64,000 nt of DNA, taken from assembly GCF_050920415.1 (NCBI RefSeq), contig NZ_CP169309.1; one strand, given 5' to 3'. The notes beneath the pieces are model-generated. The model worked only from the letters and a program-made list of their open reading frames with translations. It was not told where the DNA came from and made no database searches. A program made the translations under genes and the position numbers. This document shows, piece by piece, positions 9,391 to 12,316 of this stretch. Origin of the DNA: Escherichia coli (lineage in GTDB: Bacteria; Pseudomonadota; Gammaproteobacteria; Enterobacterales; Enterobacteriaceae). Positions within the stretch are counted from its first letter, which is position 1; each line of letters starts with the position of its first letter.

Positions 9391-9813
9391 TTATTCCCGA
9401 CCGCCGCGCACTTTGCCGCGCAACGCCTTCACGCTTGATTTTTGTGCTTTCGATACCAGCCTGCGCTCTTTTGATGCGCGGGTAGGTCGTGTCGGTCGTC
9501 GGGCTTTTTGTTCTGTTGTTAATTCTTTAATCACTGCCACCAACCGTGCCAGCGCCGCTTCGCGGTTCAGTTCCTGGCTACGGTATTCCTGTGCCTTGAT
9601 GACTATCACTCCATCGCTGCTAATCAGATGATGGCTGGCAGCGAGCAGGCGCTCTTTGTAATACTCTGGCAGGCTGGACGCTCGAATGTCAAAACGCAGA
9701 TGAATAGCCGTTGAGGTCTTATTAACATGCTGTCCGCCCGCGCCCTGTGCACGAATAGCAGTGATCTCAAACTCGCCATTGGGGATAGCAACATGTCGGG
9801 AAATCACAATCAT
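9391..9813 (-). CDS. arfB: Alternative ribosome-rescue factor / peptidyl-tRNA hydrolase ArfB (YaeJ)
   Basis: 140-aa ORF with GGQ motif (AGGQHVNKT) and a basic C-terminal tail. Overlaps the yaeQ stop by 4 nt. Confidence 0.95.
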
Positions 9814-10355
9814 GAAGGTTGTTGCCAGACGGTTAAGTTCACTTCCAGATTATTCTTGTCATCCGATAACCAGATCACGCCATCCTGAATCGTTGCCTGC
9901 AGCGTCATGGTACGATCGGCAAAGGCGCTCACTTTTGCCAGTTGCTCGTCGTCCAGATACCAGACGGAAAGATTGGCAAACTGCGCACATTTACTCTGAT
10001 TTTGCTGCCACCAGATTTGCGCCGCCCGACTATTATAGGCAAACAGCGCCACTTCTGCGGCCTGGGTGCAGGCTTTCTTAATCCGCCGCTCATCCGGCAA
10101 TCCCAGTTCAATCCACAAATCAATGCCCAGATGATCATTACGCAGCCACGCTTCCGGCTCATCATCGGCACACAAACCTCGGGTAAATTGCAGACGTTCA
10201 TCAGCATATTTCAGCCACGCCAGCAGGCGCAGCATCATGCGCTCCTGGGTTTCTGAAGGATGGCGCGCCAGCGTCAGAGAGGCATCGAGAAACTGGTTGC
10301 GGTCGAGATCGGCCACATTAACCGTCGCTTTATAAATTGTCGCTTTAAGCGCCAT
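9810..10355 (-). CDS. yaeQ: YaeQ family protein (PD-(D/E)XK-like fold, function unknown)
   Basis: 181-aa [24 protein letters not shown]..., conserved enterobacterial YaeQ. Confidence 0.9.
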
Positions 10356-10520
10356 AAGAAAACTCCTTTCGAATCAGGAGGCCATTGTAACGGAATACGT
10401 GCAGTTGCGACGCTGATATTGCAGAAATGAGTGTGGTATAGTCACCTTGCGAAACAGAGTTTATCTTCGTAGGCTTAGACTTGCATCCACGGTTAAGTCA
10501 GAGTGCTGACAGGAGGGCAT

Positions 10521-10721
10521 GTGGAAAAATATTGTGAGTTAATACGCAAGCGGTACGCGGAAATCGCCAGCGGAGACTTAGGATACGTTCCGGACGCGCT
10601 GGGCTGCGTTTTGAAAGTGCTGAATGAAATGGCTGCCGACGATGCCCTTTCTGAGGCTGTCAGGGAAAAAGCAGCATACGCTGCGGCAAACTTACTGGTG
10701 AGCGATTATGTCAATGAATGA
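10521..10721 (+). CDS. yaeP: Small conserved protein YaeP (UPF0253)
   Basis: 66-aa protein from a GTG start ([12 protein letters not shown]...). The track ORF begins 6 codons upstream at an ATG. 3' end overlaps rof. Confidence 0.8.
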
Positions 10722-10968
10722 TACGTATCAACCAATCAATTGTGATGATTACGATAATCTTGAGCTCGCCTGCCAGCATCATTTAATGCTGACACTTGAG
10801 CTGAAAGATGGCGAAAAATTGCAGGCGAAGGCCAGCGATTTAGTCTCCCGCAAAAATGTGGAGTATCTGGTCGTCGAGGCCGCTGGTACAACCCGCGAAC
10901 TGCGTCTGGATAAAATTACCAGCTTTAGCCACCCGGAAATCGGTACGGTGGTGGTGAGCGAGTCCTGA
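10714..10968 (+). CDS. rof: Rho-binding antiterminator Rof (YaeO)
   Basis: 84-aa protein [23 protein letters not shown]... An alternative ATG lies 2 codons upstream at 10708. Confidence 0.9.
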
Positions 10969-10976
10969 TTGACTTT

Positions 10977-11009
10977 CGCCGGATGCGACGTTTGATGCGT
11001 CTTATCCGG
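10977..11009. repeat. REP (repetitive extragenic palindrome) between convergent rof and tilS
   Basis: GCCGGATGCGACG...CGTCTTATCCGGC palindromic unit matching the REP consensus. Confidence 0.65.
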
Positions 11010-11020
11010 CTTTCACTTAA

Positions 11021-12316
11021 CTAAGCGTTTCGCCGCCAGACAAAACTTACGCCATTCTCACCTTCAGCCACACCTTCTTGCGTCACAAATACCTCTGCCG
11101 CTGCAATCAGCGTTTCGCCATAAAACAGCAGTGGCGTGGTGTCACGCAACCACGGCGGTACGCCCAGTTCCTGCCAGATTTTCTTTAACTTACGCCCACC
11201 ATTGCGCCCGACAATATGCAGCAATCCTGGCGCTTTGAAACGCACGCTGACCGCTTCGTCTGCACGCGGAGGGCGAATATCGCCTCCCGCAGTAAGCTGT
11301 ACACTTCCCAGCGCCGCCGGTAATTCCAGCGGTTGTAACCACGTCTGCCACGGCACAATGGTTTCGCTTTGCCCAGTGACGGATTTAATCCACCACAGTT
11401 GCGATTGATAGCGGCGGATTTCAAACGCCCCCAAACGTAAACAGGGGGAAGCATCTTCTCGCGCCAGCGCCACTTCCTGCCAGATCCTCACCAACGCGTC
11501 GCGGGAAGGCATCGGTGCATTCTGCCCTGCAAGCCAGCGGCGAATAATCGCCGCGCGACGGGCATCACTCATCGCCAGCATTGGCGCAATCTGCAGCGTT
11601 CCCTGCGGCGTTTGACAGTGTGCTAAATCATCCACCAGCAGTTCATCCAACAGGCTCTCTTGCTCAGCACAAAGTGCGGCGCTGCGGGCCGTTGCTTCGG
11701 CAAAATGCGGCCAACGCTGCTGCAATAACGGCACAACGCGCAGGCGCAGGAAGTTACGATCGTATGAGTCGTCCTGATTACTTTCGTCTTCAATCCAACG
11801 TAAACCATGCGCCAACGCCCACTGCTCCAGTTCTCCCCGCGTGCGGGCGAGCAACGGGCGGATAAGCCGCGTTCCGGCAAACTCCGAGATTTCCGCCATA
11901 GCCGAAAGCCCTGCAGGACCGCTACCGCGTTTTAGCGCCAGCAGAAACGTTTCACATTGATCGTCGAGATGTTGCGCTGTAACCAGCACTTCACCAGGTA
12001 ACAGGGTACGAGCAAATGCCTGATAACGTGCCTGCCGCGCCTGGGCCTCAATACCTAGCCCCTCTTGCGCAAGTTGCACACGCTCAACCACCAGCGGCAC
12101 CTGCCACTGCTGGCAGATATTTTCACAATGTTTCACCCAAGCATCAGCGTTGGCACTTAAACCGTGATGCACATGAATAGCGCGCAGGATGACGCTCGGA
12201 TTTTCCGTCCGCCACTGCACCAACTGATGCAGCAGAACGGTGGAGTCAAGCCCGCCGCTAAAGGCCACCAGAATCTGGCGTGAGATGAGAAGTTGTCTAT
12301 TGAGAGTGAGTGTCAT
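11021..12316 (-). CDS. tilS: tRNA(Ile)-lysidine synthetase
   Basis: 431-aa ORF with PP-loop motif SGGLDS near the N-terminus. Confidence 0.95.

Follow-up and report, generated by a model that had tools for sequence, protein, structure and literature searches.

Classical translationally coupled gene pairs, such as those found at the junctions of the trp operon, lie on the same strand and carry the ribosome-binding site of the downstream gene inside the upstream one. The overlap between the genes of such pairs is commonly of 1 or 4 nt.

The system closest to the locus analysed here is the yaeP–rof operon of Escherichia coli K-12 (b4406–b0189; PMC11018626, PMC9765468). Rof without a tag is sufficient to block Rho in vitro and shows toxicity in vivo, and cryo-EM structures are available; an N-terminal His-tag abolishes the activity of Rof, whose N-terminus is located in the Rho cavity (PMC11018626). 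According to the same work (Said et al., Nat Commun 2024), rof always overlaps yaeP in Enterobacteriaceae, its start yields a protein of 84 aa and an 8-nt overlap with yaeP, and it has no Shine–Dalgarno (SD) sequence. Owing to this overlap, both genes were cloned together and then separated in another study (PMC9765468, mBio 2022). The control of the Rho inhibitor Rof was posed as an open question (PMC11018626). Rho acts as a global terminator and is essential; the yaeP–rof junction would be a site at which Rof is controlled at the level of translation.

Here we analysed the yaeP–rof pair present in a stretch of 64,000 nucleotides of E. coli chromosomal DNA (the window). The original prediction for this pair, that the overlap reflects coupled expression and possibly a shared role in modulating termination, was partly supported: linked expression was upheld, and the shared function was left unsupported.

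The yaeP–rof locus

The pair in the window is a real, conserved and already described two-gene operon of E. coli; it is ordinary, and there is nothing new in it as such. Both frames, read from the window sequence and the list of its open reading frames (ORFs), form an overlapping pair on the same strand, placed among the following features:

9391–9813, minus strand: arfB, from the ORF list
9810–10355, minus strand: yaeQ, from the ORF list
10521–10721, plus strand: yaeP, with a GTG start (10521–10523), 66 codons and a TGA stop (10719–10721)
10708–10968, plus strand: rof, starting at ATG 10708 (86 aa) or ATG 10714 (84 aa), with a TGA stop (10966–10968)
10978–11010, no strand: REP-type palindrome in the rof–tilS gap, inverted repeat GCCGGATGCGACG / CGTCTTATCCGGC
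11021–12316, minus strand: tilS, convergent with rof

The overlap between yaeP and rof is of 14 nt when counted from ATG 10708 and of 8 nt when counted from ATG 10714, in contrast to the shorter overlaps of the classical pairs. A 66-aa, GTG-initiated yaeP overlapping rof by one or the other of these lengths had been predicted, and this description is exact as judged from the sequence and the ORF list. The two lengths correspond to the two annotations in current use, since PGAP calls yaeP ("YaeP family protein") together with an 86-aa rof ("Rho-binding antiterminator"), which gives 14 nt, and the curated K-12 annotation calls an 84-aa rof, which gives 8 nt.

The locus, its neighbours, the overlap and the REP element are the same as in the K-12 operon, and no structural difference from the published description (PMC11018626) was observed. 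The palindrome gave a weak Rfam match to the REP-derived naRNA4, and REP elements have been reported to bracket the yae locus (PMC11018626). An 801-nt region was present with at least 95% identity in 5424 of 5426 complete E. coli genomes (2 at 100%). The yaeP stop is located beyond the rof start on the same strand, with no terminator between the genes; a single weak terminator-like match with a 5-bp stem was detected within yaeP (10589–10603), which is within chance expectation. The divergent operon of the locus, yaeQ–arfB, resembles yaeP–rof in being a small-gene pair with a stop/start overlap, as was noted before (PMC11018626), but it encodes different proteins and its overlap is shorter (4 nt at 9810–9813, minus strand).

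To compare the locus across species, one genome per species was scanned with a YaeP alignment as query. At least 471 genomes had a relative, and the best 80 loci of these at least 471, all from Enterobacteriaceae, were examined. In all 80 species loci, rof was located 3′ of yaeP with an identical geometry (a 66-aa yaeP, TGA and the same offset).

The YaeP and Rof proteins

YaeP of the window is identical to the K-12 protein, and its first residue appears as V only through mechanical translation. It matched Pfam PF06786 with 116.3 bits (cutoff 27) over residues 1–65 of 65, and the NCBIfam equivalog NF003436 with 137.4 bits (cutoff 99). The length of ~65–69 aa and the C-terminal AAxAAANLL-SD motif that characterize the YaeP family (UPF0253) were both found; in the family alignments, A52 and N57 are invariant and Y22, L34, A56 and L58 nearly so. 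The family is very small: in a set of 1.84 billion representatives, it accounts for 36 clusters at 50% identity. YaeP also matched PDB entry 5H1N (1.4e-38), which is the YaeP crystal structure, deposited as SF173 of Shigella flexneri, and which PMC11018626 cites as a dimeric helical bundle. The AlphaFold (AF2) model of YaeP consists of three helices (pLDDT 90.7) and has a TM of 0.92 to 5H1N, thus showing the three-helix fold of that structure. The abundance reported for YaeP is 94.5 ppm (PMC9841429), and the protein has been detected in the Salmonella proteome. In 79 distinct species sequences, the entropies at the first, second and third codon positions of yaeP were 0.29, 0.09 and 0.93, indicating purifying selection at the protein level. 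From the structure, the proteomics and the purifying selection, YaeP is a real, moderately abundant three-helix protein; the statement that it has no assigned function still holds.

Rof matched Pfam PF07073 with 98.7 bits (cutoff 27.6) and the NCBIfam equivalog NF008636 with 181 bits (cutoff 117), positions 1–86 of 86 being matched. It is 99% identical to the chains of PDB entries 1SG5, 8W8D and 8PTM, and it carries all of the Rho-contacting residues (C10, Y13, D14, E17, R46 and K47 in the 84-aa numbering), whose roles in the contact come from PMC11018626. The entropies of the rof codon positions (0.31, 0.17 and 1.07 in the 79 distinct species sequences) also show purifying selection. Given its 99% identity to the PDB chains, Rof of the window presumably binds Rho and inhibits Rho-dependent termination. 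Rof has been reported from many families, including Aeromonadaceae (80%), Vibrionaceae (63%), Shewanellaceae (59%) and Nitrosomonadaceae (59%). From the Pfam and NCBIfam scores, the codon-position entropies and the geometry kept in 80 of 80 loci, the pair is no chance arrangement of ORFs. As a separate observation, this Rof is 99% identical to that of K-12, from which a single substitution distinguishes it: residue 61 of the 86-aa form (10888–10890) is Thr, and it is Glu in K-12 and in the PDB chains (AAGTTRE vs. AAGETRE). This residue lies in a loop near residue 57, where the insertion of an HA tag is tolerated (PMC11018626).

Start codon and upstream signals of yaeP

Upstream of yaeP and around its start codon, the following elements were identified:

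10413–10442, plus strand: candidate sigma-70 promoter of yaeP–rof, from a consensus scan (9/12 matches, with TG)
10449–10480, plus strand: conserved leader block GCGAAACAGAGTTTATCTTCGTAGGCTTAGAC, with at least 90% column identity in 81 Enterobacteriaceae and Serratia sequences
10511–10516, plus strand: yaeP SD AGGAGG, 4 nt before the GTG, with an anti-SD duplex of −10.8 kcal/mol
10519–10542, plus strand: out-of-frame ATG opening a 7-codon ORF (translation MWKNIVS, then stop), in an AUGUG start context (cATGTGg)

The sequence cAGGAGG is kept ahead of yaeP in the 79 upstream sequences, and the start codon is GTG in 78 of the 80 species and ATG in 2. A longer yaeP of 72 aa, starting from the in-frame GTG at 10503, was considered and rejected, given that the family alignments begin at the 66-aa start. 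As far as can be judged from conservation, the 66-aa start is the correct one, because the upstream GTG 10503 is not conserved. The yaeP gene has been listed among the atGTG-start genes of E. coli, with the SD AGGAGG and an aligned spacing of 12 (PMC9841429 Table 2, NAR 2022), and no start ambiguity was predicted for it (PMC9841429). The AUGUG context was confirmed here, with no difference from these genes, and (A/G)TGTG was observed at the yaeP start in 77 of 79 species.

The candidate promoter consists of a −35-like element, CTGATA (10413–10418), an 18-nt spacer and an extended −10 element, TGgTATAGT (10434–10442); both the −35 and the −10 blocks are at least 90% conserved in the 81 Enterobacteriaceae and Serratia sequences. 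This suggests that the promoter of yaeP–rof is located in the yaeQ–yaeP intergenic region. The conserved block GCGAAACAGAGTTTATCTTCGTAGGCTTAGAC lies at the 5′ end of what is presumed to be the yaeP–rof leader, making up its first ~30 nt. The fold of this leader region was no better than those of shuffled sequences (z −0.75), and the fold of the leader alignment contained only five weak pairs (UCUUC:GGAGG, −1.2 kcal/mol). No Rfam family was found in the leader or the junction, the weak REP-like matches being located only 3′ of rof. Since no Rfam family was matched and the folds were unconvincing, we discarded the idea that the leader or the junction contains a structured or known RNA. The leader block could be a site for a protein or an sRNA, or a piece of the divergent yaeQ promoter.

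The rof initiation region

A conserved block stands out at the end of yaeP, where rof starts:

10692–10712, plus strand: invariant 21-nt block TTACTGGTGAGCGATTATGTC, inside the yaeP 3′ end, with an SD-like GGTGA (10697–10701) and ATG 10708–10710

In the 79 distinct species sequences, this block is the longest fully invariant run of the whole yaeP–rof coding region. The third positions of yaeP codons 58–64 are all invariant (seven of seven), as compared with 1 of 56 elsewhere, the mean third-position entropy being 0.93 bits. The junction is conserved across species beyond coding constraint, as seen from the invariant block and the frozen synonymous sites. A Serratia locus, in which YaeP is 64% identical, shows the same geometry and overlap, with the GTG start, GGTGAGCGA, the two ATGs and the TGA all retained. 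Every one of the 80 species has ATG 10708; ATG 10714 is present in 78, and is replaced by ACG in the remaining two (L011 and L020). The invariant block and the start codons suggest that the initiation region of rof is under direct selection, centred on ATG 10708.

The window contains just two copies of the 10-mer TGGTGAGCGA (0.15 expected), one at 10696–10705, just 5′ of the rof start, and the other at 10952–10961, just 5′ of the rof stop. None of the 79 species shows any change in the first copy; in contrast, the second is present in 30 of 79 and varies synonymously in the other 49. The second copy thus serves as an internal control, since its variability indicates that the codons of TGGTGAGCGA are not intrinsically fixed. 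Given that the second copy is found in 30 of 79 species only and varies synonymously, the idea that this pair is the trace of an insertion was rejected, and the repetition was judged coincidental.

The GGTGA is placed 6 nt before ATG 10708 and forms an anti-SD duplex of −7.6 kcal/mol. This site is only moderate, since the 5th percentile of the windows of the yaeP–rof coding region is −8.1 kcal/mol. We favour the view that rof has an SD of its own, in contrast to the published description, which states that it has none (PMC11018626). The most likely start of Rof would be ATG 10708, yielding a protein of 86 aa and the 14-nt overlap instead of the 8-nt one; ATG 10714 is a possible second start. 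The longer form is favoured because of the 21-nt block and because ATG 10708 is kept in 80/80 species, as compared with 78/80 for ATG 10714. Alternatively, the invariant block could have another purpose, as a site for an RNA-binding protein, an sRNA or an RNase.

We also evaluated whether a hairpin (10696–10734) hides the SD and the start of rof, and discarded it as unsupported. The fold of a 101-nt junction segment was no better than those of shuffled sequences (z −1.25); in a 121-nt context the SD was paired with a probability of 0.99, but this value was only 0.03 for pairing with the proposed arm, and 30% of 384 synonymous recodings paired the SD at least as well. Synonymous recoding of the downstream arm did not lower the predicted pairing of the rof SD.

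The choice of start is relevant because N-terminal additions can abolish the activity of Rof. No yaeP or rof entries were found in the supplements of two studies mapping N-termini or start sites. In the source data of Fig. 3d of PMC11018626, the lanes are labelled yaeP+rof, yaeP delta-ATG+rof, rof[84aa] and rof[86aa]; these labels indicate that the authors built constructs bearing on coupling and on the choice of start, and the outcome is absent from the text of that paper. The comparative evidence for a rof SD and for the upstream ATG is a modest addition, as is the different pairing of yaeP in Vibrio described below. The result on the start and the SD of rof refines the published description without changing the picture, and may have practical weight.

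Proposed mechanism of coupled expression

The prediction that both genes are expressed in a coupled manner was well supported by the fixed overlap in every Enterobacteriaceae locus, by the invariant initiation region of rof inside yaeP and by the operon described in the literature. We propose, with considerable confidence, that yaeP and rof form an operon in which the ribosome-binding site of rof, located in the end of yaeP, ties the synthesis of Rof to yaeP, and in which Rof alone inhibits Rho, YaeP being separable from this activity. According to this model, a single transcript would be produced from the conserved extended −10 promoter (TGgTATAGT, 10434–10442), and the translation of yaeP would start at the GTG located close behind the strong SD, AGGAGG. 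The last ten codons of yaeP would double as the ribosome-binding site of rof. Since the yaeP stop is located 11 nt after ATG 10708, and the SD-like GGUGA 6 nt before it, ribosomes ending at the yaeP TGA (10719–10721) would be released onto the SD (10697–10701) and the start (ATG 10708) of rof. With the ribosomes that finish yaeP being freed at the rof start, the synthesis of Rof would be tied to both the transcription and the translation of yaeP, and the translation of rof would depend on that of yaeP. This link could operate via re-initiation, local unfolding, or both. Rof would begin at ATG 10708 (86 aa), and possibly also at ATG 10714; it acts alone as the Rho inhibitor, with YaeP linked to it and functionally separable. 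By analogy, yaeP–rof would be like the classical coupled pairs in strand, in that the first gene stops no earlier than the second one starts, and in its embedded ribosome-binding site.

yaeP outside Enterobacterales

In V. cholerae, yaeP and rof are located on different chromosomes (PMC11018626). We found that in Vibrio alfacsensis, V. vulnificus and V. hannami (three species, four loci) yaeP is located beside proS, after proS and a DUF533 gene, and is followed by a 63-aa DUF4250 (PF14056) gene at a distance of −1 to +3 nt. The yaeP–DUF4250 loci are:

L085, 3001–3398
L094 and L095, 2501–2899
L096, 2501–2899

The SD of the DUF4250 gene (GAGGA) is encoded by the last codons of yaeP. This pair resembles yaeP–rof in that a YaeP homologue (~57% identical) is the first cistron and the downstream SD lies in the last yaeP codons, with proS as the common chromosomal anchor; in contrast, the downstream gene belongs to PF14056 and is not rof, and yaeP starts with ATG (three species, four loci). 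The DUF4250 gene is a second conserved small-gene partner of yaeP. In Utexia, yaeP follows ABC-transporter genes, and no same-strand gene was called directly 3′ of it. In metagenomic contigs, yaeP was found after sulA, before a MatE transporter gene, or without a co-directional neighbour.

Functional relationship between YaeP and Rof

A role shared by YaeP and Rof in termination, which the original prediction had put forward, was not supported, considering the absence of an effect of YaeP overexpression on readthrough, the ability of Rof to act alone, the occurrence of yaeP away from rof and the absence of confident docking. The overexpression of YaeP left the plate phenotype (colony colour) and terminator readthrough unchanged, and rof alone gave the antitermination phenotype (PMC9765468). 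A fusion of both chains, YaeP-(GGGGS)6-Rof, modelled with AlphaFold2 from a paired alignment of 30 rows, gave a pTM of 0.40 and a mean pLDDT of 69, in what is a crude fused-chain test; the confidence of YaeP in this model was lower than that of YaeP alone. No confident docking between YaeP and Rof was found in the fused-chain model, which is only a weak negative. The linkage of yaeP and rof was confirmed in all 80 species loci of Enterobacteriaceae, but it was not maintained in Vibrio or in Orbaceae-like and metagenomic lineages, in which yaeP is found apart from rof. Altogether, the evidence points away from a shared job, and YaeP may have a subtle modulatory role.

Synthesis in a fixed ratio is typical of interacting proteins, and this counts in favour of the proposal that YaeP serves as a partner dedicated to Rof, made in a fixed ratio as its antagonist, chaperone or co-factor, and that the pair acts on Rho-dependent termination. 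The strict adjacency and overlap in all of the Enterobacteriaceae examined agree with this proposal, as does the lack of an assigned function for YaeP, and the published tests of YaeP were overexpression only (PMC9765468). We nevertheless consider such a partnership unlikely: that overexpression had no effect and rof alone reproduced the phenotype (PMC9765468); Rof by itself binds and inhibits Rho in vitro, as also seen by cryo-EM (PMC11018626); and Rof occurs in many families, as opposed to the 36 clusters (at 50% identity) of YaeP. In addition, the fused-chain model, crude as it is, with its pTM of 0.40, revealed no confident docking. The genes are unlinked in Vibrio, where yaeP abuts the DUF4250 gene, and Utexia and metagenomic lineages carry yaeP by itself; that yaeP has another small gene as its partner in Vibrio speaks against a function specific to Rof. 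A related possibility, that YaeP is a small adaptor acting on whichever protein is encoded downstream (Rof in Enterobacterales, DUF4250 in Vibrio), holding it inactive or delivering it, seems to us very unlikely. If it were true, YaeP would represent an unrecognised control of Rho antitermination in enterics, visible only at native levels or under particular stresses.

Another explanation is that yaeP serves mainly as an upstream frame that gates rof, as a leader or a regulatory uORF would, the protein being secondary. The location of the rof initiation region inside yaeP is compatible with this, the conserved weak GTG and the conserved leader could keep the supply of ribosomes to rof low and regulated, and Rof is toxic when overproduced. 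However, YaeP is under strong purifying selection along its full length (0.09 at the second position vs. 0.93 at the third), adopts a defined three-helix fold, known from its crystal structure, is reasonably abundant (94.5 ppm), and its family persists without rof, so that we give little credit to a purely gating role. Its small size and non-ATG start are traits of many false calls, and could be taken to mean that the small ORF called yaeP is spurious, the overlap being an annotation artefact. This is refuted by structure 5H1N and by the proteomic detection; the Pfam and NCBIfam matches far over their cutoffs, the selection pattern of the codon positions, and the conservation of the GTG (78/80 species) and of the SD also oppose it, making an artefact extremely improbable. 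The reading that we prefer is the coupled operon described above, in which YaeP is linked to Rof and functionally separable from it.

Five metagenomic ORFs in which YaeP and Rof are fused (P0281, P0286, P0288, P0306 and P0325) were also detected, with deletions at or before the junction. A programmed frameshift leading to a YaeP–Rof fusion was considered and rejected, given that these deletions are of different sizes and that each ORF is present in a single contig. Assembly errors or rare mutations are their probable origin.
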